A stretch of 64,000 bases of DNA, taken from NCBI RefSeq assembly GCF_036389215.1, contig NZ_DASVQG010000144.1, forward strand, positions 4,300-68,299, in the 5' to 3' direction. Position numbers and translations under genes: made by a program. The DNA is from Jatrophihabitans sp. Its GTDB lineage: Bacteria; Actinomycetota; Actinomycetes; Mycobacteriales; Jatrophihabitantaceae. A model generated the notes under the pieces. It ran no database searches. It saw nothing but the letters and a program-made list of their open reading frames with translations, and was not told where the DNA came from. This document shows positions 1 through 41,036 of the stretch, one piece after another (position 1 is the stretch's first letter; each line of letters starts with the position of its first letter).

Positions 1-1010
1 TGATGCACCACAGTCGCCAGATCGGCGTTCTGCATCCAGGCAGGTACCGAGCGCTCGGTCAGTGAGTCGGCGGTGCCGCGGACCGGCTCGATCAAGGGCC
101 GGCCGGGCTGGTAGGCGTTTGCATCGATGTCGTCGCGGGCACCGGATACCACGCCCAACCGGGACTGTGCGGCCTCGGCCAGCGCACGACCAGCGGCGAG
201 GTCAGCCTCGACGTGGCAGCCGAATCCCCCGCTGCGTATCGGCACGTCGCTGGACCAGATCTCAGCGGCATAGCACGGTATCCCGACACGGTTGGTGATA
301 TCGCAGAGGATGATCCGGCAACCGGCACCTCGCAGTGCCGTGTACACCGCCCTGGCATCCGGATCTCGAATGGTGGAGGGGTCCACGTAGCGGCGGTCAC
401 CCGGTGAACTCAGGCTGTGGTCCGTTATGCAGTCGCGCTCGATCAACTCCAGCAGGGCGTGGAGGACGGCCTCCTCGGTGTTGTTCCCGCTGGCCAGCCC
501 ATTGCTGGTCGTGTTGAACAGCCTGCGTCCCCAACCATCAGGCCTCGTGAAGTCAAGGGTGACGGTGTCGAACGGCACCAGGTGCGCCGAGCCGGTCAGG
601 ACGCCGTAGCCGGTGACCCAGTCCAGCACAGTGGCGGCGGTCAGCGGGGAGCGCGGGGCGAGGTTGAGAGTCCGGGGATCGTAGTGCAAGGCAAGATCGC
701 GGCTTGCCGCGCGGAACTCACTGGTGCAGATGGGGTTCTCGGCGTGCCATACCTCGATGCTTTCCATGATGGCACTCACCCGAGCTTCGACCAGGCGCAG
801 GCCCGTGCCGATGCTGACAGCATATGTAGAACCGACCGGTCGGTATGCTATGGCGACCGGCAGGCCGATCTCGTCCAAGCCGGTGATCTCAGCGACGCGG
901 GTGATCCCGAATCGCTCGCACAGCGGGTATACCCGTTCCCAGGTGAACTCCGGGCTCACCGCCCTGTACGAGCCCGAACGGCGGGCAACCCGATCGGTTA
1001 CTGAGGTCAT
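1..1010 (-). CDS. YcaO-like family protein, TfuA-associated (thioamide-forming) type; 3' end runs off the window
   Basis: Translated by hand; not in the ORF track because it has no stop inside the window. ATG at 1010 with GAGGA upstream. Reads MTSVTDRVARRSGSYRAVSPEFTWERVYPLCERFGITRVAEITGLDEIGLPV...SAIMESIEVWHAE...TTSNGLASGNNTEEAVLHALLELIERD...ALAEAAQSRLGVVSGARDDI, which are standalone YcaO motifs. Confidence 0.9.
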   Translation of the reverse strand, partial: MTSVTDRVARRSGSYRAVSPEFTWERVYPLCERFGITRVAEITGLDEIGLPVAIAYRPVGSTYAVSIGTGLRLVEARVSAIMESIEVWHAENPICTSEFRAASRDLALHYDPRTLNLAPRSPLTAATVLDWVTGYGVLTGSAHLVPFDTVTLDFTRPDGWGRRLFNTTSNGLASGNNTEEAVLHALLELIERDCITDHSLSSPGDRRYVDPSTIRDPDARAVYTALRGAGCRIILCDITNRVGIPCYAAEIWSSDVPIRSGGFGCHVEADLAAGRALAEAAQSRLGVVSGARDDIDANAYQPGRPLIEPVRGTADSLTERSVPAWMQNADLATVVH

Positions 1011-1477
1011 TGATGGTCCTCGGCTGAAGAGAGAGATGACCAGTGACAAGGCTGGACATGCCGGGAGCGATCGCCGAAGCTGATGCGCAGATTCGGCTTG
1101 CCCCCGGTTGCTTGGACTAGACGCTACGAACACCAGGTTGGCTCGGCAATACCGGCGCTTCCATGGCATGAAACTCGGCCGTCAGAGCGTGAGAGCTGAC
1201 CAGCTGTACGGGAAGGTTGGTGCGAAGCCGACATCGGCCCCAGCTCGCGCACCACCAGCGGGTCCGCGTTCAGGGCACGAGATCTGTTCGCTGCCACCAG
1301 CTGATGTGATGGTCGCAGTAATGACGCCATGAGGTGCTGCCGTACCTGACGCCGTTGCGGCAGGAATACCCGCCGAGGCTCCGCGCTCGGATGCCGAGCA
1401 CCCAGACTGGTGAGACGACAAGGACGGGGTCCGGTACCCAGCGCCGTCCGAGGTTGTAGCGCGGGGGAAGGGGCGCC

Positions 1478-2482
1478 ATGGTGGCTACCAAGCGGTGGCA
1501 ACTGGGGTTGTCAGCCTGTCTGGTAATGGCTGCTACAGCGATGGCCGGTTGCGCCGATCGGTCGCCGGCCATTTCTCGTGTCAGTGCCAGCTCCAGCGTC
1601 CCCGGCCTGATTGCGGCCAAGGCATCGACGATCCTCAGTTCCTTCGACGCCGCCGACTCGGCCGCCACGGTCTCGGGAGATATCGAGGCGCTGCGAAGTC
1701 AGGAGACAAATCCGGCGCTGCAGTCCAGCATTGCCGCAGCACGGCGAAATGCGGCGGCGAAGCGGGTGCAACCCGGTTACCGGCACACCAACCCCACCTT
1801 TGCCACGCCGACCGGAGATGCCTCCTGCTTCATGGTCGCGGCCACCCTGCAATCAACGGGCACCGAATTGGGAGTCACGGATTTCAGTCAGTTCGTGGCT
1901 ACTCCTGACGGGTCCTGGCGCCTCAGCCACAACGTCCACATCGGTCAGGAGGCAACGGCCGAGGTGCACGCCATCGGGTCGAAGCCGGCCATCCAGCTGC
2001 CTGGTCCGATACCCGCGGAGCGGTTGGACCAGGTGGCAGCCGAGATCTTCAACCGGAGTACCGGCAGCACAGCTCACGTGCGGACGCTGGTTGCCGAGAG
2101 TCCGGTACTGGACAAGCAGCTCGCCGTCGGGTGGCAGATCTACCAGCAGCAGATGAACAACTTCGGAATGAAGGTGACGCGAACCCGGAGCAGCGCGACC
2201 TGGTCGAGGTGCACAGCCCAGGCCGACGACGCTTACCTGAGGTTCCTCACGATGCAGATGACGGACACCGTCACGCCGGTATCCGGTGGGCAGGCGAAGG
2301 TGACGCTCAGCCCGCGCAGTCCGGACCTTGCAGCACTCGGGCGTTCGGTTCCGGTCAGCGGTACCCAGATCAGCATCGCCCGGGTGGAGGCATTCCTGGT
2401 GTCCCTGCCTGCCTCGAACGGCCCGGCCACCGTGCTCGGGCTGATGGACGCGCCGATAGCGCTCAGCAGCACCACCTCCTGA
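1478..2482 (+). CDS. Putative lipoprotein of unknown function
   Basis: 334-aa ORF; hydrophobic signal ending in the lipobox MAG-C; no family recognised. Confidence 0.7.
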   Translation: MVATKRWQLGLSACLVMAATAMAGCADRSPAISRVSASSSVPGLIAAKASTILSSFDAADSAATVSGDIEALRSQETNPALQSSIAAARRNAAAKRVQPGYRHTNPTFATPTGDASCFMVAATLQSTGTELGVTDFSQFVATPDGSWRLSHNVHIGQEATAEVHAIGSKPAIQLPGPIPAERLDQVAAEIFNRSTGSTAHVRTLVAESPVLDKQLAVGWQIYQQQMNNFGMKVTRTRSSATWSRCTAQADDAYLRFLTMQMTDTVTPVSGGQAKVTLSPRSPDLAALGRSVPVSGTQISIARVEAFLVSLPASNGPATVLGLMDAPIALSSTTS

Positions 2483-2659: not shown

Positions 2660-4960
2660 ATGTTTCGTCCGCGGCTGAGATCGGACTACACATCGGTATG
2701 CCTGGATTCCCCGGACGGCATTTCCGTGTTGATCACGGGAGAAGCTCGTACCCTGCTCATCGAGGGCGCGGTCACCGCGGATCTGCTGGAATTACTGGAC
2801 GGCACCCGGCACACCCACGAGCTCGTACAGCAGTTGAGCGAGCGGTATCCGCCGAGAGCGGTCGGCGGGGCGATACGCAGGCTGACCGAACTCGGAGTTC
2901 TCGCCAGTGGCGGCACTGCCCAGGACTCGAGGACAGCGGCTGCCTGGGATGCCCGCGGCACCGATCCAGATCTGGCAGAGGCCTGGCTGCGCAACGGCCG
3001 GGTCACCCTGATCGATGCGGGGGCGCCGACCGCGGCGGTCATCGCTCGAGCCCTGGCTGACGCCGGCCTGGCGGTGGACCGGATCGAGTCGCACGCGATC
3101 ACTGCCAGCCGGCTCGCCGCGGCCGATCCGGGCAGTGAACTGGTGGTGCTGCCCCGGTCCTACGTCGATCCGATCCTGGCGGGGATCAACCAGGTCTGCC
3201 TCGACCTCCAACGGCCGTGGACGCTGGCCCGCCCCCATGGGCTCACCCTCCTGCTGGGCCCCCACCTGGTTCCCGGCCGCACCGGCTGCTGGCAGTGTTT
3301 ACTCCAGCGGTGGCAGGAGAATGAGCAGCTGGAGAACTATGTTGCCGCGCAACGGCCACAACTGCCGCGGCTGGATTCAGCCAGGGCCGCGCACGCCTCG
3401 ACGGCGTCGGTGCTGGCGGGCCTGCTTCTGGCTGAACTGCCGGTGCTGGCTGTGAACCGTAGCTCACCTCGGATCACCGGACGCATGATCGCGCTCGACA
3501 CGCGTGATCTGACGGCGAGCGAGCATGTCCTCGTGCATCAACCCCAGTGCCCGGCCTGCGGAAGCCCTGAGCTGGTGCGGCAAGCCACCGGGCGCGTGGT
3601 GATCTCCTCGGCCGCGAGCACCAGCGACGACAGGGAACCGTCACGGACCCTGAGCCTGGCCGAGACCTGGGACCGGCTGCAGCATCACGTCAGCCGGTAT
3701 TTCGGCGTGGTTTCCAGGCTTGCGCCGGTAGCGATGGCCGGTGCTGCCGGTACTCATACCTACAGTGCTGTGCACAACTTCGCACTTGCGCGAAGTGCCA
3801 CGACCCTGCGCATGAATCTGCGTGGTCAGAGTGGTGGAAAGGGTCGCACGGACCTGCAGGCCCGGGTGGGCGCCGTCTGCGAGGCGGTAGAGCGTTATTG
3901 CGGCCTGTGGCGGGGTGAGCTACCCACCCGGCAGGCAAGCTATCTCGAACTGGGACCCGAGGAGGCGGTGAACCTCCGCCAGCTACTGCACTATTCCGAT
4001 GACCAGTACGACCAGCGGGAGAAGTTGAATTCCTCGCTGGCTCATTTCCACCGAATTCCACGCCGCGCCCCGGACGACCTGGTGATGAGCTGGACCACCG
4101 GGTGGTCGCTGACCCACCAGGTGGCCCGGGCGATCCCGGCGGCATATTGCTGGTACGGCCATCCCGAACTCGAGAGCCTGGGCGTGACCGGCGCGGACTC
4201 CAATGGTTGCGCGGCGGGCAACACCCTTGCCGAAGCGGTGTTGCACGGTTTCTGCGAGCTGGTCGAGCGGGACAGCGTGGCGTTGTGGTGGCACCATCGA
4301 TCCAGGGTTCCTGGCGTCGACCTGGACTCGTTCGCCGACCCCTGGATCACGCAGTTGCGTCGCCGCTACGAGCAGGACCACCATCGGGACCTGTGGGCGC
4401 TGGACCTCACCGCGGACCTGGGCATTCCCGCGTTCGCGGCTGTGTCGGCATGCCGGGCTCGGCCGACCGAGGACGTCCTGGTCGGCTTCGGCGCCGACCT
4501 CGATGCCGGGGTTGCGCTCAGCCGGGCGATGGCCGAGGTCGATCAGTTCCTGCCGGCGGTTTCCCGATACGAGGCGGGGTCGACCCGGTACGGATTGTCG
4601 GAGCCCGAGGCGCTCCGGTGGTTCATCTCGGTCCGGGTGGCCGAGCATCCCTGGTTGGTTCCGGACCCGGACGTGCCCGCCACCACCGCCGACCGGCACC
4701 CCGACCGGACGTCGCTGGAGGTAGCCGACGGTGTCGCGCACTGTGTCCGCATCGCTGCTGCCGCAGGGCACGAGGTCATCGTGGTCGACCAGTCACGTCC
4801 CGACATCGAGCTGTCGGTCGCCCGGGTGATCGTGCCGGGGCTTCGCCATTTCTGGCGCCGCCTCGGGCCGGGGAGGCTGTGGACGATTCCAGGCCTGCTC
4901 GGCAGGGAGCCACTCGCGGCGTCCGAGCATGAGGTGAATCCGATGAACGTCTTCTTCTGA
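2660..4960 (+). CDS. Fused TOMM/LAP cyclodehydratase (RRE + E1-like C domain + YcaO D domain)
   Basis: Likely start ATG 2660 (GGAAG upstream). Zn-binding pairs GCWQC and PQCPACG; YcaO motifs CEAVERY and DSNGCAAGNTLAEAVLHGFCELVERD; C-terminus EVNPMNVFF typical of azoline-forming YcaO. Confidence 0.93.
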   Translation: MFRPRLRSDYTSVCLDSPDGISVLITGEARTLLIEGAVTADLLELLDGTRHTHELVQQLSERYPPRAVGGAIRRLTELGVLASGGTAQDSRTAAAWDARGTDPDLAEAWLRNGRVTLIDAGAPTAAVIARALADAGLAVDRIESHAITASRLAAADPGSELVVLPRSYVDPILAGINQVCLDLQRPWTLARPHGLTLLLGPHLVPGRTGCWQCLLQRWQENEQLENYVAAQRPQLPRLDSARAAHASTASVLAGLLLAELPVLAVNRSSPRITGRMIALDTRDLTASEHVLVHQPQCPACGSPELVRQATGRVVISSAASTSDDREPSRTLSLAETWDRLQHHVSRYFGVVSRLAPVAMAGAAGTHTYSAVHNFALARSATTLRMNLRGQSGGKGRTDLQARVGAVCEAVERYCGLWRGELPTRQASYLELGPEEAVNLRQLLHYSDDQYDQREKLNSSLAHFHRIPRRAPDDLVMSWTTGWSLTHQVARAIPAAYCWYGHPELESLGVTGADSNGCAAGNTLAEAVLHGFCELVERDSVALWWHHRSRVPGVDLDSFADPWITQLRRRYEQDHHRDLWALDLTADLGIPAFAAVSACRARPTEDVLVGFGADLDAGVALSRAMAEVDQFLPAVSRYEAGSTRYGLSEPEALRWFISVRVAEHPWLVPDPDVPATTADRHPDRTSLEVADGVAHCVRIAAAAGHEVIVVDQSRPDIELSVARVIVPGLRHFWRRLGPGRLWTIPGLLGREPLAASEHEVNPMNVFF

Positions 4961-4966
4961 AACCAG

Positions 4967-6451
4967 GTGCCACCCATGGTCGTACCACTACCCAGGATCG
5001 AGCCAGTGGAACCGTCGGCGGGCGAGGCCGTCGGCGTGCGGGAACTGTTCCGGCTGCGGCCTGATGCTCGACTTGTCAGCGGGGCCGATGGAACCCTTGC
5101 GCTTCGGCAGAGCCGGTTCGAGGTGGTGGTGGATCCCTCCAGCATCGCGCGGCGCGCCCTCCTGCTCCGCCTTGCCGAGACGTGGCTGGACGAAGAGGAA
5201 CTCGATCGGCTGCTGGTCTCCAGCGCCGGCGAACAGGGCGTCCTGCAGGGCCAGGTCCTGCTCCGGCGGCTGGCCGCGCATTCATGGCTCTGCCGGCGGC
5301 TGCAGACGGGTGAGCGTCCGCTGCTCGACGTCGTTCCGCAGGGCCTCGGCGCCACCAGTCGGATGTCGGCCGAGGCAGCCCAGCCGGGGGTCAGTTACCG
5401 GTTCTCCCGGTTCACGGCGGCTCTGAGCGGGCCGAACGGTCTGAGCCTGCGCAACCCGCTTGCGAACGTGACGATCGAACTCGCCGAGCCCGCGCTCGGC
5501 TGGGCAGTTGCGCTGGCCGCTTCCACGGGCTGTGACCAGCAGGACATCGAGCGCACCGCGAACCTGGAGGGCAGCGCGGCAGCCGGCGTCCTCGATGAGC
5601 TGATCCGGGCGCGGGTCCTGGTCCGGCCGCTGGAACTGAAGGCTGAGCAGAGCGGGCCGCCACAGGTGTTCTGGGAGCCTGAGGAACTCGCCGTCCACCA
5701 CAGGTCGCGGGCCGGCAGGCATGTGCTGCCGGTGGGCGGCACGTACCGCTTCCGGGATCGGCTTCCTCCCGAATCGCTCGGCAGCGGGAACCCGGAGGCC
5801 GCGGGGATCGCCCTCCCGGTGCCGGATCTGGCCGAGATCTCGGCTGCGGAGCCGAGCCTGAGCGCGGTGGTGGCGGCTCGGCGCACGCTTCGCGAACATG
5901 ATGAGTCGCTGCCTATCACCGTCGAGGAACTGGCGCAGTTCCTCTACCGGGTGCAACGCACCTGGGACGTGCGCGAGGTCGAGGGCATGCAGGTCGGGCG
6001 GCGTCCGTACCCGAGCGCGGGCCAGGTCTGTGAACTGGAGATCTATCCGCTGGTGAGTAGCTGCGCCGGACTGGCGCCCGGGCTGTATCACTACGACTCA
6101 CTCGGCCATGCGCTGGTACGGGTGGCGGACCCGAACGGGCACGCCGTCAGAGTCCTGAACTTTGCCAAGGCGGCTTCAGGCGCGTCGGGTACTCCGCAGG
6201 TACTGATGGTGGTGACCGCCCGGGTACCCCGTTTGCTGTGGAAGTACGAGGGACTTGGCTACTCGCTGATGCAGAAGGACGCCGGGGTATTGATCGAGTT
6301 GATGTATCTGGTGGCCACCGCGATGAAGCTGGCGCCGTGCGCACTGGGCTCCGGTGACTCGGAGGGTTTCGCGGCGTTGTCAGGCCTGGATCCGCTTGCC
6401 GAGCCGAGTATCGCCGACTTCATGCTCGGCTCGGTGTTGGAGGAGGTGTGA
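4967..6451 (+). CDS. SagB/ThcOx-family FMN-dependent azoline dehydrogenase
   Basis: RRTLREH, RPYPSAG..ELEIYP, GLYHYD, WKY..LGYSL..KDAG, LVATAMKLAPCALG motifs; directly follows the cyclodehydratase. Confidence 0.92.
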   Translation: MPPMVVPLPRIEPVEPSAGEAVGVRELFRLRPDARLVSGADGTLALRQSRFEVVVDPSSIARRALLLRLAETWLDEEELDRLLVSSAGEQGVLQGQVLLRRLAAHSWLCRRLQTGERPLLDVVPQGLGATSRMSAEAAQPGVSYRFSRFTAALSGPNGLSLRNPLANVTIELAEPALGWAVALAASTGCDQQDIERTANLEGSAAAGVLDELIRARVLVRPLELKAEQSGPPQVFWEPEELAVHHRSRAGRHVLPVGGTYRFRDRLPPESLGSGNPEAAGIALPVPDLAEISAAEPSLSAVVAARRTLREHDESLPITVEELAQFLYRVQRTWDVREVEGMQVGRRPYPSAGQVCELEIYPLVSSCAGLAPGLYHYDSLGHALVRVADPNGHAVRVLNFAKAASGASGTPQVLMVVTARVPRLLWKYEGLGYSLMQKDAGVLIELMYLVATAMKLAPCALGSGDSEGFAALSGLDPLAEPSIADFMLGSVLEEV

Positions 6452-7257
6452 GATTCCGGCAGCAGGCGCTGCGCAAACTCGAAGGTCCCGAGCAACTCGA
6501 TCAGGTGGTTCGGCTGGCCAGCGCTCCTTCCTGGCTACTCGCCGGCCTGTTGAGCGTCATCGTGCTGACCGCGGCGGTGTGGGCATCGGTGAGCACCGTG
6601 GCACGCACCGTACGGGCGACTGGGGTGCTGATCCACTCCAATGGTGTTTCCGACCTCGACGCGACCAAGAGCGGTGGGGTGGTCAAGGTCTGGGCGCAGC
6701 CCAACCAGCTGATCACCGCAGGCGCCCCGCTTTACACCCTGCAGCGCACCGAGGGCTCGCTCGAGACGATCAATTCACCCTGGGATGCCTACGTCGTCGG
6801 AATCCTCGTCTCGGAGGGCCAGCTGGTCCAGCCCGGCAGCAGGATCGCCTCCCTGGAGCGCGTCGATACCCCCGGTGACGCCTTGCGGGCCGTGGTATTC
6901 GTCTCCGCCGCGGCTGCGCCGATGTTGCGGGCCGGCTTTCCGGCCGACATCTCGGCCAAGTCGGTTCCCACCGCGGTGTTCGGCACGCTCAGCGGCACCG
7001 TGGCCTCGGTAGGAGCCTTTCCCGAGACCCAGGAATCGCTCCGGGCCTTTCTCGGTGGCGGAGTCGACTCGTCGGCGATCCTGTCCCATGGCAGCGTGAT
7101 CCGGGTGACGGTCACCCTGGCGACGGTGGCCGGCTCGTCGACGACCCTGCGCTGGTCCAAGACCGCACCACCGTTCCAGTTGAACTCCGAGAGTTCGGTG
7201 ACCGCCCTGTTCACGGTGGCCGAGGAGCATCCGATGAATTGGGTGCTCGGGCGATGA
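6448..7257 (+). CDS. NHLP bacteriocin system secretion protein (HlyD-like membrane fusion protein)
   Basis: N-terminus FRQQALRKLEGPEQLDQVVRL, one TM segment, biotinyl/lipoyl-like segment VSEGQLVQPG; 4-bp overlap with the upstream gene. Confidence 0.88.
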   Translation: MRFRQQALRKLEGPEQLDQVVRLASAPSWLLAGLLSVIVLTAAVWASVSTVARTVRATGVLIHSNGVSDLDATKSGGVVKVWAQPNQLITAGAPLYTLQRTEGSLETINSPWDAYVVGILVSEGQLVQPGSRIASLERVDTPGDALRAVVFVSAAAAPMLRAGFPADISAKSVPTAVFGTLSGTVASVGAFPETQESLRAFLGGGVDSSAILSHGSVIRVTVTLATVAGSSTTLRWSKTAPPFQLNSESSVTALFTVAEEHPMNWVLGR

Positions 7258-7285
7258 GGCCCCGGCGCGCGAGGCGAGTTCGCCC

Positions 7286-9460
7286 ATGAACGTCATGGAG
7301 CTTCGGACCAGTCGACCTGACGGCCTTGCCCGGCGTAAGCGGGTGCGCACGCCCACGGTGATCCAGATGGAGGCCGTGGAATGTGGTGCTGCGGCGCTGG
7401 GAATAGTGCTGGCCCACCACGGCCGCCACATCCCCCTGGAGGAGCTGCGGCGAACCTGCGGTGTCAGCAGGGACGGGTCCACCGCCTCCAGCGTGCTGAA
7501 GGCAGCGCGCAGCTACGGCTTGTCCGCGCGCGGTTTCCAGATGGATGTCGCCAACCTGGGAGAGCTGGCACTGCCGGCCATCCTGTTCTGGAAGTTCTCC
7601 CACTTCGTAGTTCTGGAAGGCTACGGCCGCACCGTCCGCTTGAACGACCCGGCGATCGGCCCCAGGTCGGTCAGCTGGGAGGAGTTCGACGGCTCCTTCA
7701 CCGGCATCGTGCTCACCCTGGAACCGGGACCGGACTTCCGTTCCGGGGGCAGGCCCTACCGGGTGCTGTCCGCTCTGGCCGGTCGGCGTCCCCAATTCAG
7801 TTCGGTGCTGCCGTTGGCCGTGCTGCTCGGCGTGCTCATCGCGGTCGCCGGGTTCACGATGCCGGCTCTCACCAGGATGTTCGTGGACCGGGTGCTGCTC
7901 AGCGGTGGGGAGGGGGAGCTGGCCGGGCTGATCGCCGCCACCGGGTTGGCCGCCGCGGTCACCCTCGCCGCCGCGGTGCTGCAACAGCGACTTCTGGTGC
8001 GGACCGAAGCGACGTTCGCCCTCGGCACCGCCGCGCGCTTCTTCCGGCATCTGTTGCGACTGCCGCTGGAATTCTTCGACCAGCGCCAGGCAGCCGATCT
8101 CACCAACCGGGTGCGTAGCAACGACGTCGTCGTCGACATCATGGTCCGGAGGCTGGCCTCGACGGTGGTGGACTTTGCGCTGGTCCTCACCTACGGCGTG
8201 TTGTTGTGTATGTACGACGTCACCCTCGGCCTGCTCGCCATGTTCTTCTCGGGCCTGAACGTCGTCGTATTGCGTTACGTGTCCACGATCAGGTCCAGCG
8301 CCGTGGCCGGCTTGCAGGCCGATCGGGGCAAGCTGTTCACCGCCGTCTTCACCACGATCCAGATGATCGAGACGCTCAAGGCCAGCGGCGAGGAGCAGGC
8401 GGGTTATCAGCGCTTCGCCGGCCGGGCCGCGGCAGTGACGTCGGCCCAGCAAAGGCTGGGTGTTCCGGCTGCCATGATGGCAGCAGTCCCCGCCTTTCTG
8501 GCAGCGGTCAACGCAGCACTGGTGCTGTGGCTGGGTAGTTTCCGGGCTGTCGAGGGTGCCCTGAGCATCGGCGTCCTGGTAGCGATGCAGGGCCTGATCA
8601 CCTCGATGAATCGGCCGATCACCAACCTCACGCTGCTCGGCACTCGCCTCCAGGAGATGAGCGCGGATCTGAGCCGCCTGCGAGATGTCGAGCGCTATCC
8701 CCGGCGAACCCACGCCGAACCGACCACTCGGGTGCCGGAGATCGATGGCCATCTGCGGATCGACCGAGTGACTTTCGGCTACAACCCGCTGGCCGCTCCG
8801 CTGCTGGAGGACTTCTTCCTGGATCTGCCCGCGGGTAGCCGGGTGGCACTGGTCGGCGGATCGGGGAGCGGTAAGTCAACCGTCGGGCGTTTGGTGGCCG
8901 GGCTGTATGAGCCCTGGTCCGGCTCGGTCACCCTGGACGGCAGGCGGCGGCAGGAGATAGGCCGCGAACTATGGGCAGCAACCTTCGCCATGGTCGACCA
9001 GGACCAGCTGTTCTTCGAGGCCAGTGTCAGGGACAACGTCACATTGTGGGACCACTCGGTGCCCGACGAGGACATCGTCTGCGCTCTCACCGACGCCGCG
9101 ATCTATTCCGAGATCTCCCGGCGGCCCGGCGGACTGGCCAGCATGGTGTCCGAAGGTGGCCGGAACTTCTCCGGAGGCCAGCGGCAACGGCTGGAGATCG
9201 CACGCGCGCTGGTGCGCAACCCGTCGGTGCTGGTGCTCGACGAGGCCACCAGCGCGCTCGACGCCGAGACTGAGCGGCTGATCGACCGCAACCTGCGCCG
9301 GCGGGGGGCGACGTGCCTGATCGTGGCGCATCGGCTCTCGACGATTCGCGACTGCGACCTGATCGTCGTGCTCAAGGCGGGGCGGGAGATAGAGCGCGGC
9401 ACCCATGACGAACTCATAGCCGCGGACGGGCACTACGCCCAACTCGTTCGCCAGCAGTGA
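7286..9460 (+). CDS. NHLP-family bacteriocin export ABC transporter with C39 peptidase domain
   Basis: QMEAVECGAAAL (catalytic Cys), SHFVV (His), TM domain, Walker A GGSGSGKST, signature FSGGQRQR, LVLDEATSALD. Confidence 0.95.
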   Translation: MNVMELRTSRPDGLARRKRVRTPTVIQMEAVECGAAALGIVLAHHGRHIPLEELRRTCGVSRDGSTASSVLKAARSYGLSARGFQMDVANLGELALPAILFWKFSHFVVLEGYGRTVRLNDPAIGPRSVSWEEFDGSFTGIVLTLEPGPDFRSGGRPYRVLSALAGRRPQFSSVLPLAVLLGVLIAVAGFTMPALTRMFVDRVLLSGGEGELAGLIAATGLAAAVTLAAAVLQQRLLVRTEATFALGTAARFFRHLLRLPLEFFDQRQAADLTNRVRSNDVVVDIMVRRLASTVVDFALVLTYGVLLCMYDVTLGLLAMFFSGLNVVVLRYVSTIRSSAVAGLQADRGKLFTAVFTTIQMIETLKASGEEQAGYQRFAGRAAAVTSAQQRLGVPAAMMAAVPAFLAAVNAALVLWLGSFRAVEGALSIGVLVAMQGLITSMNRPITNLTLLGTRLQEMSADLSRLRDVERYPRRTHAEPTTRVPEIDGHLRIDRVTFGYNPLAAPLLEDFFLDLPAGSRVALVGGSGSGKSTVGRLVAGLYEPWSGSVTLDGRRRQEIGRELWAATFAMVDQDQLFFEASVRDNVTLWDHSVPDEDIVCALTDAAIYSEISRRPGGLASMVSEGGRNFSGGQRQRLEIARALVRNPSVLVLDEATSALDAETERLIDRNLRRRGATCLIVAHRLSTIRDCDLIVVLKAGREIERGTHDELIAADGHYAQLVRQQ

Positions 9461-9467
9461 AGGATCA

Positions 9468-12400
9468 GTGGTTCGGATGCCGACGACGGTCGAGGACAGC
9501 GGCTGGGCGACCCTGCACGAACTCGCCCAGGAGCCGGTAACCGGGCCCGTCTGGCTCGACGGTGACGCCGGTGCGTATCTCGTGTCCGGCGGACCGGCGG
9601 ACCTGTTCGCGGTTCGGCGTACTCGACCGGGTGTGCGTGCGCGCCGGCACTTCGTGGCTCGGGTGCCGGAGTTCAGCGTCGTTCCCGCTACCCGGAGCAT
9701 CGGGTCGTGGCGACTGGAACTGGTCGGGTTGCCGGAAACCGAGGTGCGAGCCTGCGCGCGATCACCGGTAGCGGAGTCCGAAGCCGCCGTCGCCGCCGCG
9801 CTGACCCAGCCGGACCCGCCACGTGAGCTGACGGCGCTGCAGCAGGCGGTGGTGACCGGGCTGGATCACGCGCTACTGGCGATCGCGGACTCCGTTCGGG
9901 ACGGCCAAGCCCCGCGGAACTCGATCGCGCTGCAGCCGCGGCAGATATTGTCCGTGAGTGCTGGCAGCGCGATAACCGGAAACGCCCGGGTGTGGTGGGT
10001 CCGGGCGATCGGCGGGGTGCTCACCCGCAACGAGGGCGCCGCGGCAGAGACCGTGGCCGACGGAGAACTCACCCTGTTCGCCGGCCGCGACTGGCTGGTG
10101 GCAGGTTCGGACTGCACCGTCGAGGCGGTCTCCACCGCCGACCTGCTGAGCAGCGGTCAACTGGGCGTGTCGCTCGAGCACTTCGGTGCCGCCCTGCTCA
10201 CCACGGTGGCGGCGCGGGCGGGACGGGAAAGGTCCCGCAACGAGGCAGCCCTGGCCGCCCGTAAGCGGGCGGACGCCGCTGCCGTTGCCGGAGCTGCCCG
10301 TTCAGCGGTGGGCGTGCTCGGCGCCCGGCTCCACCGGATCGAGCCCGATCACGATGCCAGGCAGCGGCTCGACCTCTACCGTTACGCACGCGCGGTGCTG
10401 ACGATCGTCACCGAGCGAGGTCCCGTCCGGGTGAGATTGACCGAGCCGCCGGACCGGCGCAATCGGGCGACGACGCACCCGGACGCGATTCGAGCGATCT
10501 GCCTCAGCTCCGGCTTGCACATCCGCGAGGTGAAGTTGCCTCCGCGATGGTGGCGAGAAGACCTCGGCCCGCTGATCGGATGGCGCCGACACGGCGCCGA
10601 CACCCCCGTTCGCGCGGTCGCACTGGTGTTCAAGCACGGCAGCTATGTCGAGGTGGATCCCGAGACCCGCAGCTCACGGCGGATAGAACAAGGGCCTGCC
10701 GCCGAGTTCGAAGGCACAGCCACCCAGGTGCAGGTGCCACTTCCGATCGGATCGACGTTGCGCCAGGCCCTGACCCATGGCCTGGCCGGCAGCCGGGCCG
10801 ACATACGGGGCACCGTGGTAGCCGGGCTGATCACAGCAACGCTGGGTCTGGCAACGCCGGTGATCAGCGGAATCCTGCTCGGGGACCTCGCTCAGAACGG
10901 TTCGGTGCGTGGCCTTCGCACATTCCTTCCCTTGCTGTTGTGCTCCGCCTTCATCTCCGCTGGTGCCCTCATCGTGCAGAACCTGCACGTCCTGCGGCTG
11001 GAAGGACGCGCTGAGGCCGGCACCCAACTCGCGCTGTGGGACCGCATCATGCGACTGCCCGTGCGATTCTTCCGTTCGATGACCAGCGGTGAACTGGCCA
11101 ATGCCGTCCTCGGCATCTCCTTCGTCCGGGAATCGATCAGCGGGATCTTCGTGCCGTGCGTGGGAGCATCCTTCGCGATCCTCGGCGACCTCACGCTGAT
11201 CTTCGTCGTTGCCCCGATCCTCGGATTCTTCGCCCTGGGACTGATCGCGGCCTGTGCCGCGCTGGTAGCGGTACTCGGGCGGCTCGTCATCAGGCGGGCG
11301 CGGTCGGCGTTGCCGCAGGAGCACCATGCGACTGCCCTGACCAACCAACTTCTCGGCGGCATCACCAAGATCAAGCTGGCCGCGGCCGAGGACCGGGCAT
11401 TCGCCCAGTGGTCTGAAGCGCATACCGGCGCGCGCGGCATCCTGCTGCCGGTGCGGCGGGTACAGGCGATCGTGCTGGCTTGGACCGCGGTGCTGCCGAT
11501 CCTGGGCCAATTGCTGTTCTTCCTCACGCTGGCCGGCCCCCTCGAGCACAGGGTGAGCATCAGCAACTTCTTCGTGGTCAACGTGGCGTTCTCGCTGCTG
11601 CTCGGCGCGATGCTGGTTCTGGTTGCGGCGAGCATCGAGATCGTCGCGGTGGTCCCGCGACTGGAGATCCTGCAACCCATAATCTCGGCGGAGTCCGAGC
11701 AGCGCAGTGATCTCATCTCCCCCGGGGATCTCAGCGGTGACATCACGCTGGCAAGCGTCTCCTTCGGCTACCTGCCGGACGATCCGCCGGTCATCGAGGA
11801 CGTGTCACTGCACATCCGTCCCGGCGCATTCGTCGCCATCGTCGGGCCCAGCGGATGCGGCAAGTCGACCCTTCTCCGCCTGCTCCTCGGATTCGACGCG
11901 CCACGCTCGGGCTCGGTTCACTACGACGATCAGGACCTGGAGGAGTTGGACGTCCAAGCCGTGCGGCGGCAGTGCGGCGTGGTGCTGCAGGACGGCCAAC
12001 TGTTCGCGGGCAGCCTTCGCGAGAACATTTCCGGTGCCGGCAATTTCACGCTGGAAGAGGCATGGGAGGCAGCCGCCTTGGCGGGAATCTCGGAGGACAT
12101 AGAAGCCTTCCCGATGGGAATGGCAACCATGGTGCCGGTCGGTGGCGGGACCCTGTCGGTGGGACAGCGGCAACGCGTCCTGATCGCCAGAGCCCTGATA
12201 CACCGGCCGCGCATCCTGTTCTTCGACGAGGCCACCAGCTCGTTGGACAATCGGACCCAGGAGATCGTGACAGCAAGCACGAAGAAGCTGGCCGCGACGA
12301 GAATCGTCATAGCCCATCGGCTGTCTACCATCATCGACGCCGATCAGATCGTGGTGATGGATCATGGCCGCATCGTTCAGACGGGCGATTACCAGAGCCT

Positions 12401-12509
12401 CATGAGTGATCGGGACGGGTTGTTCGCCAAGCTGGCGGTGCGTCAACTGATCGAGCTGCCGGGCAGCTGGTCGGCCGATGGGGAGTTCCGGCCGGATCAG
12501 CCGGCCTGA
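9468..12509 (+). CDS. NHLP bacteriocin export ABC transporter permease/ATPase subunit (no peptidase domain)
   Basis: Long N-terminal extension, TM domain, GPSGCGKST, LSVGQRQR, FFDEATSSLDN. Confidence 0.93.
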   Translation: MVRMPTTVEDSGWATLHELAQEPVTGPVWLDGDAGAYLVSGGPADLFAVRRTRPGVRARRHFVARVPEFSVVPATRSIGSWRLELVGLPETEVRACARSPVAESEAAVAAALTQPDPPRELTALQQAVVTGLDHALLAIADSVRDGQAPRNSIALQPRQILSVSAGSAITGNARVWWVRAIGGVLTRNEGAAAETVADGELTLFAGRDWLVAGSDCTVEAVSTADLLSSGQLGVSLEHFGAALLTTVAARAGRERSRNEAALAARKRADAAAVAGAARSAVGVLGARLHRIEPDHDARQRLDLYRYARAVLTIVTERGPVRVRLTEPPDRRNRATTHPDAIRAICLSSGLHIREVKLPPRWWREDLGPLIGWRRHGADTPVRAVALVFKHGSYVEVDPETRSSRRIEQGPAAEFEGTATQVQVPLPIGSTLRQALTHGLAGSRADIRGTVVAGLITATLGLATPVISGILLGDLAQNGSVRGLRTFLPLLLCSAFISAGALIVQNLHVLRLEGRAEAGTQLALWDRIMRLPVRFFRSMTSGELANAVLGISFVRESISGIFVPCVGASFAILGDLTLIFVVAPILGFFALGLIAACAALVAVLGRLVIRRARSALPQEHHATALTNQLLGGITKIKLAAAEDRAFAQWSEAHTGARGILLPVRRVQAIVLAWTAVLPILGQLLFFLTLAGPLEHRVSISNFFVVNVAFSLLLGAMLVLVAASIEIVAVVPRLEILQPIISAESEQRSDLISPGDLSGDITLASVSFGYLPDDPPVIEDVSLHIRPGAFVAIVGPSGCGKSTLLRLLLGFDAPRSGSVHYDDQDLEELDVQAVRRQCGVVLQDGQLFAGSLRENISGAGNFTLEEAWEAAALAGISEDIEAFPMGMATMVPVGGGTLSVGQRQRVLIARALIHRPRILFFDEATSSLDNRTQEIVTASTKKLAATRIVIAHRLSTIIDADQIVVMDHGRIVQTGDYQSLMSDRDGLFAKLAVRQLIELPGSWSADGEFRPDQPA

Positions 12510-12574
12510 CTCCGAAGGGCGAACTCGACCTGACGGCGCGCTCGACCTGGCGGCGCACGCGACCTCAGGGTGGG

Positions 12575-13336
12575 TCAGCCGACATCGATGGCGGCGGCCG
12601 ACTGGTCCATCGGAAAGCTGACACCTGAGTGCTGCGCTATCAGATCGGGCACCCGCGCCTGCCCGCTGCGTTCCACCGTCGACTGAAATGCCTCGGCGAG
12701 CAGGATGGTGATGCCTTGGGTGAGTGCGGTGGTCTCCCGGTCGAGATCCTCCCAGGAGGTGAAGCTGGCTCCTTCGATCGACGGCAAGGTGGTGACCAGG
12801 CGCAGCCCGACCTCATGTACCAGCTCATCGGCCTGCGTCTGGACGTGGTCCAGGATCTCCACCAGGGCCTGCAGTGCCACGCTGGGGGCTACGCCGGCCC
12901 GGCGCAGGGTGAAAGCTGCGCGGAGCAGGCGCGGGCGCGTGGTACGTACGGTGCCGTCATTTCCTCGGGACAGCACGCCGTGCCGAAGCAGGCCGTTCGT
13001 CAGGGCAGGATGGTCCACCCAGAACCGATCGAGGTTCGCGCTGCAGGTCTCGCCCTGCTCCGAGCCGTCGCGCACGCCGAGAATCGACGCTATCGAGACG
13101 AGATTGAACCCCTGGCGCTGGAGATTCTTGATCGCCTCGATGCGCCTGATGTGTTGTCCGTCGTAATAGGCCACCCGGCCGATGCGAGTGGGTTGGGCAA
13201 GCAGCCCACGCGCCTGGTGTGCGCGGATGTTGCGGGCGGACATGCCTACCCGGTGTGCGAACTCTTCCACCGTGAGCCGAATTCCCGGATCGGACAGCTC
13301 GGGACTGACTCCGGATGGCAGAGGAGCAGTCATCAA
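12575..13336 (-). CDS. MerR-family transcriptional regulator
   Basis: LTVEEFAHRVGMSARNIRAHQARGLLAQPTRIGRVAYY N-terminal HTH; no Cys cluster for metal sensing. Confidence 0.85.
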   Translation of the reverse strand: MMTAPLPSGVSPELSDPGIRLTVEEFAHRVGMSARNIRAHQARGLLAQPTRIGRVAYYDGQHIRRIEAIKNLQRQGFNLVSIASILGVRDGSEQGETCSANLDRFWVDHPALTNGLLRHGVLSRGNDGTVRTTRPRLLRAAFTLRRAGVAPSVALQALVEILDHVQTQADELVHEVGLRLVTTLPSIEGASFTSWEDLDRETTALTQGITILLAEAFQSTVERSGQARVPDLIAQHSGVSFPMDQSAAAIDVG

Positions 13337-13438
13337 ACCTACCTAAACAAATGCGCCTGCTGATCGAGCCGACTACGCAGCGGATTCATCGCGTCGCTGT
13401 CTGCAGCGGCAGACTCTACCGCCGAATCAGTTAAATGC

Positions 13439-13462
13439 ATATACGACTCCTGCTGTCTGTTT
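13439..13462 (+). promoter_or_regulatory. Weak ARE-like site upstream of the RiPP precursor
   Basis: ATATACGACTCCTGCTGTCTGTTT; about 4 mismatches to the AWAC-N10-GTWT-type gamma-butyrolactone receptor consensus as I recall it. Confidence 0.25.
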
Positions 13463-13646
13463 CGTGGGTTCTGACGGTAAGCGGTGACCTTTGCACGGAT
13501 CGAAGCTCGCGCCGGCGAGTGGAGCGGCGGCGGCCGGTGTAATCGGGACCGGTTCCTAGCCAGTGCATCCCTGCACAGCGACGATGGCCAGCAGCAGCTC
13601 GCGGCGGCAGCCACTCGGCTCCGGCGCATCTTCGGAGGAGACCACC

Positions 13647-14012
13647 ATGGAACCCAGCAGCAGGTCCAAATTCGTCACGGCTTACAGCCGCCTGGTCGCA
13701 GATGTGTGGGCCGAGCCGGACAAGGAACGACAATTGGAAGCAGATCCGCGCGGGTTTATCGCCGGGTACGGGTTGGAGGTCCCGGACGGGGTGAAAGTGA
13801 CGTTGCTCCGCGATGTCGGCGATGCCGAACCGGACCTTGACCAGCAGGTCCAGACCTGGCTCCAAGCACCGGAAACCGGGGAACTCATCCTGGTCGTCCC
13901 GGCCCTGGACCCGGTGGCGGAGTCCGAGCTCGACGAGCACGAGCTCGACGCCGTGGTGGCCGGACTGGATCTGAGCTGCGCCTGCTGCTGTCCATGCTGC
14001 TGTACGACCTGA
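13647..14012 (+). CDS. NHLP (nitrile-hydratase-like leader) RiPP precursor; predicted core LDLSCACCCPCCCTT
   Basis: Strong RBS GGAGGAG before ATG 13647; leader with RLVADVWAEP..LEADPRG..GYGLEVP; double-glycine-like motif ELDEHELDAVVAG followed by a 15-aa core containing 7 Cys. Confidence 0.92.
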   Translation: MEPSSRSKFVTAYSRLVADVWAEPDKERQLEADPRGFIAGYGLEVPDGVKVTLLRDVGDAEPDLDQQVQTWLQAPETGELILVVPALDPVAESELDEHELDAVVAGLDLSCACCCPCCCTT

Positions 14013-14053
14013 GGCCACCAGTCCCGGCCCGGCACAGCAACAGCTGAGACAGC

Positions 14054-14096
14054 ACAGCGAGGACAGCAACAGCGAGGACAGCAACAGCGAGGACAG
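14054..14096. repeat. 15-bp tandem repeat (ACAGCGAGGACAGCA) x about 3
   Basis: Read directly; the third copy is incomplete. Confidence 0.9.
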
Positions 14097-14143: not shown

Positions 14144-14149
14144 TGCTTG

Positions 14150-14223
14150 CGACCCCGACGGGACTCGAACCCGCGACCTCCGCCGTGACAGGGCGGCGCG
14201 CTAACCAACTGCGCTACGGGGCC
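14150..14223 (-). tRNA. tRNA-Asp(GTC)
   Basis: GGCCCCGTAGCGCAGTTGGTTAGCGCGCCGCCCTGTCACGGCGGAGGTCGCGGGTTCGAGTCCCGTCGGGGTCG; cloverleaf, anticodon GTC. Confidence 0.97.
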
Positions 14224-14316
14224 TAGAAGGAACCTCTAGACCTGCGTGCTCACCGGCAACTTTCCGGACGAGCCTGCGAAACCATACTACGTGCAGCACC
14301 GATCGTGCCTGCCGCG

Positions 14317-14389
14317 TACCCCCAACGGGATTCGAACCCGTGCTACCGCCGTGAAAGGGCGGCGTCCTAGGCCACTAGACGATAGGGGC
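14317..14389 (-). tRNA. tRNA-Glu(TTC)
   Basis: GCCCCTATCGTCTAGTGGCCTAGGACGCCGCCCTTTCACGGCGGTAGCACGGGTTCGAATCCCGTTGGGGGTA; anticodon TTC. Confidence 0.97.
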
Positions 14390-14483
14390 TTGCTCGAACA
14401 GCCGTCCCAGTTTAGCGAGGCCGCCAAGCTCGCCCGGCACAGGGCCGCGGAGCCGGTCGTGCCGGTGCCGCGTGCGCACCGGC

Positions 14484-15101
14484 TCAGTGCGGCGCCAGCC
14501 CGGTCAGCACCAGCTGCACCACCGTCTCGGGCAGGTTGACCCGGTCAGCCCGGCCGGGCCGGTACCACTCGGTGAGCGAGTTGATCATGCCGAAGATCAG
14601 CCGGGTGGCGACGGCGGCGTCGAGCCGGGAGTCCACGTCGCCGTCGCGCTGGGCCTGCAATACCAGATTGGCCACCAGCTGGTCGAACTCCCGCCGCCGG
14701 CCCAGCGCGGCCAGCTCGGTGGGGCTGTTGCCCCGCACCCGCAGCAGCAAGGTGACGTAGGGCAGCTCGTCGAGCAGCACCGCGACGGTGCCCCGCAGGA
14801 CATGGGTCAACCGGTCCACGGCCGGCCCGGTGGTCGCCCCGGGCTGGGTCAGCACCGCGAACAGCCCGTCCAGCGCCCGGTCCAGGGCCAGCGCGAGCAG
14901 TTGCTGCTTGCCCTGCACGTGGTGATAGATCGAGGACTTGCTCAGCCCCGCGGCGGCAGCCAGGTCCTCCATCGAGGTGCCCTCGTAGCCACGGCTGGTG
15001 AACACCGTCACCGCCACGTCCAGCAGCGTCTCGGTGGTGTAGGCGGGGCGGTTGCCGCGCATCCGCTGGTGCTTGACCTGCTGGCCGCCCGGTTCCGGCA
15101 T
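14484..15101 (-). CDS. TetR/AcrR-family transcriptional regulator (PaaR-like)
   Basis: FTSRGYEGTSMEDLAAAAGLSKSSIYHHV HTH; C-terminus RLIFGMINSLTEWYRP. Confidence 0.9.
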   Translation of the reverse strand: MPEPGGQQVKHQRMRGNRPAYTTETLLDVAVTVFTSRGYEGTSMEDLAAAAGLSKSSIYHHVQGKQQLLALALDRALDGLFAVLTQPGATTGPAVDRLTHVLRGTVAVLLDELPYVTLLLRVRGNSPTELAALGRRREFDQLVANLVLQAQRDGDVDSRLDAAVATRLIFGMINSLTEWYRPGRADRVNLPETVVQLVLTGLAPH

Positions 15102-15115
15102 CGCACCCGCCGCCC

Positions 15116-21936: not shown

Positions 21937-22617
21937 GTGCCGGTGGCGATGCAGCAGCGAGCGGTCCTGACTCGCGGACGGGTCCTGATCGCCGCTGCGG
22001 AGGTTTTCGCTCGGACCGGTTTCCTGGCAGCCAGCATGAACGACATCGTGGAAGCCGCCGGGGTCACCAAGGGCGCCGTGTACTTCCACTTCCCCAGCAA
22101 AGAGGCGCTCGCCGTCGCGGTCGTCGAGGAGCAGTTCGCACAGTGGCCGCCCTTGGTGGCCGGGATCATCGAGCACTCACCCGACGCGCTGACCAGCATC
22201 GTCGCGCTGACCTATGAGGTGGGCAGCAGGTTCCGGGACGACGTCCTGATCACGGCCGGCGTCCGGCTGTCCTTCGAACGGGAGCTGGTGCATGCCGCAA
22301 TGCCCACGCCGTTCGTGGGGTGGGTCGCCATCCTGCAGGATCTGTTCAGCCAGGCCCGACGCGAGGGCCACCTGCGGGCCGGGCTGGTGCCGGCCGCTAC
22401 CGCCCGGGCACTGGTCGGTGGCTTCTTCGGCATCCAGCACGTGTCGGAGGTGTTGACGAACCGGGTGGATCTGGAATCCCGGCTCGACGAGTTCTGGAAG
22501 GTCTTTCTGGTCGGGGTGGCCGCCGAGCCTGATTGGGCAGGCACCCAGCGCGCGGTGCGGCGGGTTCGGGCCACGGTTCGCCGGACACCGAGCGCGGCGG
22601 AGCCCGAGTTCGAGTAG
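21937..22617 (+). CDS. ScbR/ArpA-family autoregulator-binding TetR regulator
   Basis: MQQRAVLTRGRVLIAAAEVF..GVTKGAVYFHFPSKEALA; GVRLSFE, PFVGW, VGGFFGIQ, DLESRLDEFW. Confidence 0.9.
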   Translation: MPVAMQQRAVLTRGRVLIAAAEVFARTGFLAASMNDIVEAAGVTKGAVYFHFPSKEALAVAVVEEQFAQWPPLVAGIIEHSPDALTSIVALTYEVGSRFRDDVLITAGVRLSFERELVHAAMPTPFVGWVAILQDLFSQARREGHLRAGLVPAATARALVGGFFGIQHVSEVLTNRVDLESRLDEFWKVFLVGVAAEPDWAGTQRAVRRVRATVRRTPSAAEPEFE

Positions 22618-23581: not shown

Positions 23582-23658
23582 CGAACCTCCCCCGGTTAGC
23601 AGATGGTTGTTTGACGGTCGTAACCGCTGGTAATTATCTGCAGACCACTTTACGCCGG

Positions 23659-40996: not shown

Positions 40997-41036
40997 TCAG
41001 CAACTGCGGCCAGTCCAGGATGTCGCGAGACATCAG

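Follow-up and report, generated by a model that had tools for sequence, protein, structure and literature searches.

A cysteine-dense RiPP locus in Jatrophihabitans predicted to direct a linear poly-thiazole peptide

Gene content, enzymes and boundaries of the locus

The DNA considered here is a stretch of 64,000 nucleotides from Jatrophihabitans sp. (GC ~68%), which we call the window throughout, and our subject is a gene cluster near its left end of the kind that makes peptides synthesised on ribosomes and modified after translation (RiPPs). Judging from homology, we consider it likely that this is an intact RiPP locus in which a Cys-rich core would become a linear hepta-thiazole peptide, cleaved after Ala-Gly and exported, and that the locus is linked in its evolution to a second enzyme module beside it. 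Region 2660-14012 holds, on the plus strand, six long open reading frames (ORFs) with coding-type GC by codon position (third-position GC, GC3, ~0.80) plus a small terminal ORF. All eight genes lying wholly inside the window are intact and have coding-type GC3.

The biosynthetic run opens with a 766-aa heterocyclase of the LynD/TruD/PatD type (2660..4960, plus strand), in which a RiPP recognition element (RRE) and E1-like part is fused to a YcaO domain. Its ORF is open from 2558, and the start at ATG 2660 is the one called in two other assemblies. An N-terminal extension over 2558-2659 was set aside as weakly coding and unused by gene callers elsewhere, yet two relatives (L005/L006) align from residue 2. 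There follow, on the same strand, a flavin mononucleotide (FMN)-dependent azoline dehydrogenase of the SagB/ThcOx type (4967..6451; the 481-aa product called elsewhere uses an alternative start at 5006), a short HlyD-like membrane-fusion protein of 269 aa (6448..7257), and two ATP-binding cassette (ABC) genes. The first, ABC1 (7286..9460), is an NHLM-type exporter with an N-terminal C39 double-glycine peptidase; the second, ABC2 (9468..12509), is a 1013-aa exporter subunit without a peptidase domain. The start of the HlyD-like gene overlaps the dehydrogenase stop by 4 nt, and because the gaps elsewhere in the run are at most 28 nt, the arrangement from heterocyclase to ABC2 suggests one operon.

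The precursor gene (13647..14012, plus strand, 121 aa) closes the cluster, with a ribosome-binding site GGAGGA 8 nt before its ATG. Its leader occupies 13647..13964, and the core with the stop codon 13965..14012. A gene for a 253-aa MerR-family regulator (12575..13336, minus strand) diverges from it, with an imperfect palindrome (13487..13502) between the two. The plus-strand ORF 12629-13363 runs antisense to the MerR gene and was discarded as spurious. Tandem repeats were seen on either side of this pair: a 17-nt unit in 2.8 copies between the convergent ABC2 and MerR genes (12518-12565), and the 15-nt unit ACAGCAACAGCGAGG in 4.3 copies (14034-14096) ahead of a tRNA-Asp gene. By family scans, the fused cyclodehydratase, SagB dehydrogenase, HlyD-like protein, two ABC exporters and precursor named in the original prediction are all present, intact and on the plus strand at these coordinates.

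That prediction had called the set complete. The listed genes are indeed there, but the cluster continues to the left, where a 334-aa lipoprotein-like protein (1478..2482, plus strand; signal peptide, lipobox MAGC and a weak DUF8094 match) is encoded directly upstream of the heterocyclase. Farther left lies a second, stand-alone YcaO of the TfuA-associated type (1..1010, minus strand), which starts at 1010 and leaves the window after the N-terminal ~336 of its 391 codons. An independent assembly, L013, equals the window across 12,482 bp with 0 mismatches and reveals the DNA beyond the left edge. The parts that had gone unmentioned are therefore the MerR gene, the lipoprotein, the second YcaO (YcaO2), two bounding tRNA genes and, outside the window, a second precursor with genes for TfuA and a B12-binding radical S-adenosylmethionine (radical-SAM) enzyme. 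A possible precursor ORF upstream of YcaO2 (1182-1421, minus strand) was rejected on its non-coding GC by codon position (0.61/0.75/0.57).

On the right, the cluster is bounded by tRNA-Asp(GTC) (14149-14223) and tRNA-Glu(TTC) (14316-14389), both found by ARAGORN on the minus strand, and beyond them are housekeeping genes with a GC3 of ~0.92. Two plus-strand ORFs here (14246-14539 and 14472-15152) overlap the tRNA genes and an opposite-strand TetR gene and were judged spurious. The 3' end of tRNA-Asp faces the cluster, whose GC3 of ~0.80 falls below that of the flanking housekeeping genes. Together, the lower GC3 and the tRNA abutment hint at horizontal acquisition, but no integrase and no direct or flanking repeat that would mark a genomic island was seen at the cluster. 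The single DNA sequencing run containing the whole locus is a biocrust metagenome.

Both modifying enzymes have close structural relatives. The heterocyclase scores 231 bits against TIGR03604 (cut-off 219), 110 bits against TIGR03882 (cut-off 37) and 295 bits against Pfam YcaO. In phmmer searches of the PDB, its residues 23-762 align with LynD (4V1T, E = 1.5e-144) and TruD (E = 1.3e-138), and also with MusD. The acidic motifs CEAVER and ELVERD are kept in the LynD/TruD alignment, and the C-terminal tail NPxxVFF is kept in all relatives. The dehydrogenase reaches 147 bits against TIGR03605 (cut-off 78), carries a ThcOx N-terminal domain as well, and aligns over its full length with CyaGox (5LQ4, E = 2.4e-53), retaining the RPYPSAG motif and the Lys-Tyr pair in WKY. 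On these catalytic motifs and full-length homology, the enzymes look functional.

The export machinery is also recognisable. ABC1 exceeds the TIGR03796 equivalog cut-off (919 vs 853 bits), and the best match of its peptidase domain is LahT150 (6MPZ, E = 6.8e-40). The predicted intact Cys/His pair of the C39 peptidase is there as C33 and H106, and with Q27 and D121 it lines up with the catalytic residues of LahT150, PCAT1 and ComA. ABC2 has an N-terminal extension of ~320 aa that is kept in relatives, where alignments start at residue 8-28. The HlyD-like protein matches only positions 246-416 of TIGR03794 plus the N-terminal anchor and misses a central ~165 of 421 model positions. Because it is 269-270 aa long in every relative, this short HlyD is the normal form of the family rather than a truncation, and a shortened adaptor would plausibly suit bacteria without an outer membrane. 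The biosynthetic class put forward earlier, a YcaO/dehydrogenase azole RiPP with C39 cleavage after Ala-Gly, is thus backed by homology to LynD/TruD, CyaGox and LahT150.

The precursor, its core and the wider family

Precursor 1 consists of a 106-aa leader ending ELDAVVAG and the 15-aa core LDLSCACCCPCCCTT, exactly as first described. With 7 Cys, 1 Ser, 2 Thr and 1 Pro, the core offers 10 heterocyclisable residues out of 15. A profile built from 51 precursor sequences has as its best PDB match the NMR structure of MprE7 (8TB1, E = 4.8e-7), a leader peptide of the nitrile hydratase-like kind (NHLP), and also matches nitrile hydratase alpha subunits (E = 1e-6 to 7e-6). Family members themselves match the curated NHLP model TIGR03793 at E <= 0.01 in 49 of 51 cases (best E = 7e-10). 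At this profile level, we take the precursor to belong to a longer, divergent branch within the NHLP clan. Its AlphaFold (AF2) model, with a predicted local distance difference test score (pLDDT) of 73, has three N-terminal helices, a strand, an extra helix at residues 64-77, a second strand and a disordered tail.

The end of the leader carries the signals expected for enzyme docking and cleavage. L95-x4-L100 forms an L(X)4L motif and, with E99, V103, A105 and G106, a double-glycine site (L at -12, E at -8, L at -7, V at -4, A at -2 and G at -1). All six residues are invariant or nearly so in the 51 clusters. In characterised systems, L(X)4L is needed for modification of the NHLP MprE7 by the YcaO protein MprC and for the binding of PatE to the LynD RRE (PMC12455567).

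The core is conserved far beyond this organism. At 90% identity, the precursor family comprises 51 clusters, the window's own and 50 further, from Micromonospora, Solwaraspora, Actinoplanes, Dactylosporangium and many soil metagenomes. The motif CCCPCCC (C113-C119) is invariant in all 51, whereas the leaders are just 53-86% identical. Synonymous codons for the invariant core residues vary between genomes (TGC/TGT, CCA/CCC/CCG), so the conservation reflects selection on the peptide. The claim of novelty accordingly holds in part: no characterised match turned up in the searchable literature, but the locus is not unique, with at least 51 clusters in public Micromonosporaceae genomes and metagenomes. 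We found no description of the family in the open-access literature (paywalled papers, supplementary tables and MIBiG lay outside this search). The family therefore appears uncharacterised without being peculiar to the window; its biosynthetic logic is conventional, and it is already abundant in public genomes.

Gene order is kept as well. The series lipoprotein, heterocyclase, oxidase, HlyD, ABC1, ABC2, (MerR), precursor recurs in Dactylosporangium vinaceum, Actinoplanes spp. and Winogradskya spp., and the order from lipoprotein to precursor also in Micromonospora auratinigra and several metagenome contigs, as far as their flanks extend. Besides the second module described below, no further modifying enzyme is common to all loci with visible flanks. 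Two loci depart from the pattern. In L016 (ENA contig_98341, 10553-13847), genes for an FMO-like monooxygenase, an alpha/beta hydrolase and a methyltransferase come after precursor 1, and the visible flanks show no ABC exporters; judging by this example, some lineages may tailor the poly-Cys scaffold further. In L003 (Dactylosporangium sp. CA-233914), the machinery from lipoprotein to ABC2 is complete, and no CCCPCCC precursor, MerR gene or second module occurs within ~4 kb downstream, so that this locus may be degenerate or rearranged.

A superfamily profile search of 1.84 billion representatives widened the family to 424 clusters at 50% identity (E <= 1e-3). Among the best 148 matches, 117 are full-length, and 77 of these 117 have at least five Cys in the last 22 residues. 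A poly-Cys-Pro-Cys motif occurs in 59 of the same 117, giving at least 59 such clusters at 50% identity, with cores such as CCCCCPCCTCT, CCCCPCCCC and CCCCTPCCCC. One distant member, from a Mycobacteriales metagenome-assembled genome (L008), has the core WELNCCCCPCSCCT, and its cluster encodes the same five proteins. None of the nine poly-Cys superfamily members tested passed curated NCBIfam cut-offs.

The second module, the predicted product and the rest of the window

The DNA revealed by L013 contains, in order, the 391-aa YcaO2 and a paralogous precursor of 118 aa on the minus strand, then a 449-aa TfuA (PF07812) and a 723-aa B12-binding radical-SAM enzyme; we call this module 2, and the cluster described above module 1. 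The expectation of a single precursor is correct within the window, where tblastn with relatives' precursor 2 found precursor 1 only, but the paralogue lies ~2.7 kb beyond the left edge. Precursor 2 ends in ELDAVGAG followed by the core TNNIIFIVIL. The two precursors are 35% identical and share L(X)4L and the ELDAVxAG-type cleavage motif. Across loci, precursor 2 has hydrophobic cores with many beta-branched residues (TNNIIFIVIL, LVVIIIIL, ...NNVNIIAVLIV), a composition that would fit backbone thioamidation and C-methylation. In L013, the stand-alone YcaO adjoins both TfuA and a precursor, the arrangement of thioamidated-RiPP clusters.

Module 2 adjoins module 1 at eight independent loci (a count that leaves out L011/L012 and L017, where the relevant flank is beyond reach), and it does so in three arrangements. 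In the window/L013 and L015 it lies upstream in divergent orientation, in L001, L002, L004, L005/L006 and L009 it follows downstream in tandem, and in L016 it is placed differently again. YcaO2 of the window is 53% identical to that of L005 by tblastn. Because the adjacency survives rearrangement, it argues for functional coupling of the two modules, for which shared export through the single C39 exporter is the minimum reading.

The same facts would suit a stronger dependence, either an obligate two-peptide system resembling two-component bacteriocins or cross-talk of YcaO2, TfuA and the radical-SAM enzyme onto the Cys-rich precursor, and the product predicted from 2660-14012 would then be incomplete. 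Paralogous precursors with common ELDAVxAG and L(X)4L motifs, adjacency at eight loci despite three arrangements, and only one encoded C39 exporter are all compatible with this. However, each module has its own precursor and YcaO, as is usual for independent pathways with a shared exporter. L011/L012 lack module 2 downstream (their upstream side is not visible), and the absence of transporters from the visible flanks of L016 indicates that the parts are coupled loosely. We regard either form of dependence as unlikely.

The regulator and the lipoprotein bear on what the Cys-rich peptide might do. In the regulator, a helix-turn-helix (HTH) domain spans residues 20-99 (Pfam MerR_1, E = 6.5e-13), and the C-terminal ~150 aa have no family match. 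Its PDB matches are confined to the HTH, the only region where it resembles MerR, CueR and SoxR. A TipAL-like identity, which the equal length of 253 aa had raised, was dismissed when no TipAS domain emerged from Pfam or PDB searches. The regulator is syntenic in L001, L004-L006, L009, L011 and L016. Among six aligned MerR-precursor intergenic regions, the palindrome at 13487-13502 is the only well-conserved block, reading GATCnATTGCAnCGATC in Micromonosporaceae and GACCTTTGCACGGATC in the window, and may, speculatively, be the MerR operator.

The lipoprotein gene stands directly upstream of the heterocyclase also in L001-L006, L013, L015 and L017. The protein has no Pfam or NCBIfam match at E <= 0.01. 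An AF2 model (pLDDT 80; predicted template modelling score, pTM, 0.79) predicts two tandem NTF2-like alpha+beta domains, and its best PDB folds are NTF2-like/VirB8-like domains with weak E values (2e-3 to 1e-2). The model was built on a shallow alignment, as low-complexity words saturated the candidates and the homologue search gave 4 proteins. On this predicted fold, the lipoprotein is a speculative candidate for an immunity or product-binding protein.

Extreme Cys density around a conserved Pro hinge, a MerR-family gene adjoining the precursor and a secreted lipoprotein that could serve as a binding protein might instead describe a metal-binding peptide; the original prediction had named a metal chelator, besides a nucleic-acid or ribosome binder, among its possible functions. 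Some or all Cys would then stay thiolates, perhaps assisted by thiazoline nitrogen, and chelate Cu, Zn or another thiophilic metal in the manner of a chalkophore or metallothionein, with MerR sensing the metal. Metal-sensing MerR, CueR and SoxR use Cys ligands, however, and the regulator here has no conserved Cys (its sole one, C98, varies), which argues weakly against metal sensing. The strictly conserved azoline oxidase would give aromatic thiazoles and no free thiols, no importer or uptake gene is conserved in the cluster, and the NTF2-like lipoprotein is unlike a solute-binding protein. Taken together, metal binding seems distinctly improbable.

We instead think it more likely that the secreted peptide is bioactive and acts on a specific target, because a bacteriocin-type exporter accompanies very strong purifying selection on a seven-residue motif; strict conservation of the core across genera likewise implies a specific target, which could be DNA, the ribosome or a membrane. 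In the proposed pathway, the N-terminal ~85 residues of the precursor would fold as a nitrile-hydratase-like leader domain, and the L95-x4-L100 segment would dock on the RRE of the LynD-type heterocyclase. With ATP, this enzyme would cyclodehydrate the Cys of LDLSCACCCPCCCTT to thiazolines, which the ThcOx/CyaGox-type FMN oxidase would aromatise to thiazoles. The predicted product has one isolated thiazole and two ter-thiazole blocks split by Pro, Leu-Asp-Leu-Ser(Thz)-Ala(Thz)3-Pro(Thz)3-Thr-Thr, and the core Ser and Thr may or may not be cyclised too. Calculated [M+H]+ values are 1538.494 unmodified, 1412.421 with seven thiazolines and 1398.311 with seven thiazoles.

For release, the C39 domain of ABC1 would cut after A105-G106, and ABC1, ABC2 and the short HlyD would export the product. 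The MerR-type regulator probably controls the precursor promoter, responding to an organic ligand rather than a metal, and the DUF8094 lipoprotein would act as an extracytoplasmic accessory, possibly in immunity or product binding. In module 2, YcaO-TfuA would thioamidate the backbone and the B12-radical-SAM enzyme C-methylate the precursor 2 core TNNIIFIVIL. One exporter probably releases both peptides, because precursor 2 carries the same type of cleavage motif, ELDAVGAG.

Several results weigh against this account. The precursor reaches only 26.4 bits against TIGR03793 (cut-off 50.9) and aligns over residues 14-54 only, so the predicted NHLP leader stands at the level of profile homology to 8TB1 and nitrile hydratases and falls short of the curated definition. 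Foldseek with the precursor model placed nitrile hydratase alpha subunits in the top 17 positions at non-significant E values (0.4-1.4). Two of the exporter parts score below their cut-offs, ABC2 with 702 bits against TIGR03797 (cut-off 709, aligned from residue 322) and the HlyD-like protein with 115 bits against TIGR03794 (cut-off 156). LynD and TruD act on Cys in cores quite unlike CCCPCCC, with its six adjacent Cys flanking Pro, and YcaO2 and TfuA could conceivably act on the Cys-rich peptide. Any roles given to the lipoprotein, regulator, operator and ABC2 extension are suggested by position and fold. Finally, the chemistry is deduced from homology, and no RNA-seq run containing the locus was found.

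That missing transcript would also be expected if the cluster were silent or decaying and yielded no product here, and the short, below-threshold HlyD and the absence of a consensus sigma-70 promoter upstream of the precursor point the same way. But scans for sigma-70 promoters and terminators at the precursor, which found nothing, are uninformative in high-GC actinobacteria, and all relatives share the short form of HlyD. Moreover, the eight whole genes are intact with coding-type GC3 and catalytic motifs in place, and the core is under purifying selection. We therefore hold a silent or decaying locus to be very improbable indeed.

On a broader scale, one could tentatively see poly-Cys-Pro-poly-Cys on an extended NHLP-like leader as a large, multi-lineage RiPP scaffold of two rigid oligo-thiazole blocks joined by a Pro hinge, which in Micromonosporaceae and Jatrophihabitans would be half of a two-peptide system, its partner thioamidated, C-methylated and sent through the same exporter. 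This extension is rather doubtful as things stand; if true, the two peptides would be needed together for an activity with a new mode of action.

Elsewhere in the window, to the right of the cluster, an 807-aa AA_permease_2 protein fused to a C-terminal OB-fold (tRNA_anti-codon) domain (15116-17539, minus strand) adjoins a TetR regulator (14484-15101, minus strand). Another TetR-family regulator (21937-22617, plus strand) adjoins an AfsA-type (A-factor/gamma-butyrolactone synthase) gene (22661-23683, minus strand), and the two, ~8 kb away from the RiPP genes, may form a small-molecule signalling pair. A 1062-aa FtsX-like permease (31169-34357, plus strand) and the ABC ATPase-like sequence after it (~34400-36000) have the highest GC of the window (0.745); an 18-nt repeat of 4.1 copies lies at 35184-35256. 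At ~41000-46200, GC drops to 0.58-0.63 from ~0.70 elsewhere, up to tRNA-Ser(GGA) (46067-46154, minus strand). This low-GC stretch contains ORFs lacking family matches together with ORF 41510-42490, which matches the Shedu SduA_C nuclease domain (E = 1e-6), and it may be a small defence island. A 327-bp unit occurs twice, at 92% identity, at 59758-60408 inside a 764-aa ORF (59002-61296, minus strand) without a Pfam match, and the neighbouring 576-aa ORF (56357-58087) is likewise without a match.

Relation to known peptide systems

Contiguous azoles are the pharmacophores of potent natural products, among them microcin B17, plantazolicin and streptolysin S. To our knowledge, streptolysin S still lacks a solved structure, largely owing to its poly-Cys core. 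With its short, low-variation core of 15 residues and enzymes near LynD and CyaGox, the system described here would be a tractable model for adjacent-Cys heterocyclisation and ter-thiazole function. Co-inheritance with a YcaO-TfuA-radical-SAM module would make it an unusual case of two YcaO chemistries sharing a leader family and an exporter. Because near-identical cores occur in cultivable strains of Micromonospora, Actinoplanes and Dactylosporangium, the compound should be accessible without the uncultured Jatrophihabitans.

In class, the locus has what defines linear azol(in)e-containing peptide (LAP) or thiazole/oxazole-modified microcin (TOMM) clusters: a YcaO protein with an E1-like/RRE domain, a SagB-type dehydrogenase with Lys-Tyr, and a Cys/Ser/Thr-rich core after a leader. 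Azol(in)e rings are predicted for the mature product. Pfam and NCBIfam scans of the cluster ORFs and their neighbours found no macrocyclase, pyridine synthase or lanthipeptide dehydratase. As in NHLP/proteusin systems, a double-glycine-type motif goes together with an associated C39 ABC exporter.

The closest characterised parallel is the set of azol(in)e proteusins made by MprE, MprC and MprD (PMC12455567; 8TB1). As here, a structured NHLP leader bears L(X)4L before a GG-type site, and a fused RRE-YcaO heterocyclase that prefers Cys works with a flavin oxidase that gives thiazoles. The differences lie in the precursor and the surrounding genes. MprE leaders have 81 aa, whereas the present one has 106 aa with an extra helix-strand insert at ~59-83, and in place of ten hypervariable cores with 2-6 azolines there is one invariant poly-Cys-Pro-poly-Cys core. 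The present locus also adds a MerR regulator, a DUF8094 lipoprotein and a linked YcaO-TfuA-radical-SAM module.

Full-length homologues of the heterocyclase and oxidase are found in cyanobactin pathways, as LynD, TruD, PatD and MusD for the former and ThcOx/CyaGox for the latter. The grouping of NHLP/Nif11 and cyanobactin D proteins together (Cox et al. 2015, PMC4603692) matches the enzymes seen here. Still, Pfam and NCBIfam scans found no PatA/PatG subtilisin-like protease in or near the cluster, and despite its LynD/ThcOx-type enzymes it is therefore not a cyanobactin cluster. With the PatA/PatG protease/macrocyclase absent and no prenyltransferase found, the peptide here has an NHLP-like leader rather than a short PatE-type one, would be cleaved by the C39 ABC exporter and is expected to be linear.

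Streptolysin S-type (SagA) cytolysins are alike in having contiguous-Cys cores that presumably become contiguous thiazoles, the SagA core being a poly-Cys sequence. Cytolysin cores have at least 10 contiguous heterocyclisable residues (Cox et al. 2015, PMC4603692). By contrast with the locus here, cytolysin clusters encode SagB, SagC and SagD as separate proteins together with a CaaX-type protease, and their precursors combine a short leader with a long C-terminal tail that is not heterocyclised and lack the conserved central Pro. The window's C and D functions are fused, its leader has 106 aa, and TIGR03603 (SagC) is matched at 33 bits against a cut-off of 188; the enzymes belong with those of cyanobactins rather than with SagBCD.

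Dehydrazoles (cca; PMC10676384) and nostatin A (PMC11583998) are characterised NHLP-leader RiPPs with YcaO azoles, and the C-terminus of CcaA is described as Cys-rich. Their pathways additionally depend on a LanM-like dehydratase, a radical-SAM epimerase or a sactionine-forming enzyme, none of which is in module 1, and their cores have at least 30 aa of mixed composition, compared with 15 aa here. In its export genes, finally, the cluster resembles the NHLM trio of Haft et al. (TIGR03794/03796/03797) and the LahT protease (6MPZ): ABC1 passes TIGR03796, its peptidase is closest to LahT150, and the site positions are canonical. It differs from that trio in a HlyD lacking the central ~165 positions and an ABC2 longer by ~320 aa at its N-terminus, the two proteins that fall below the curated cut-offs.

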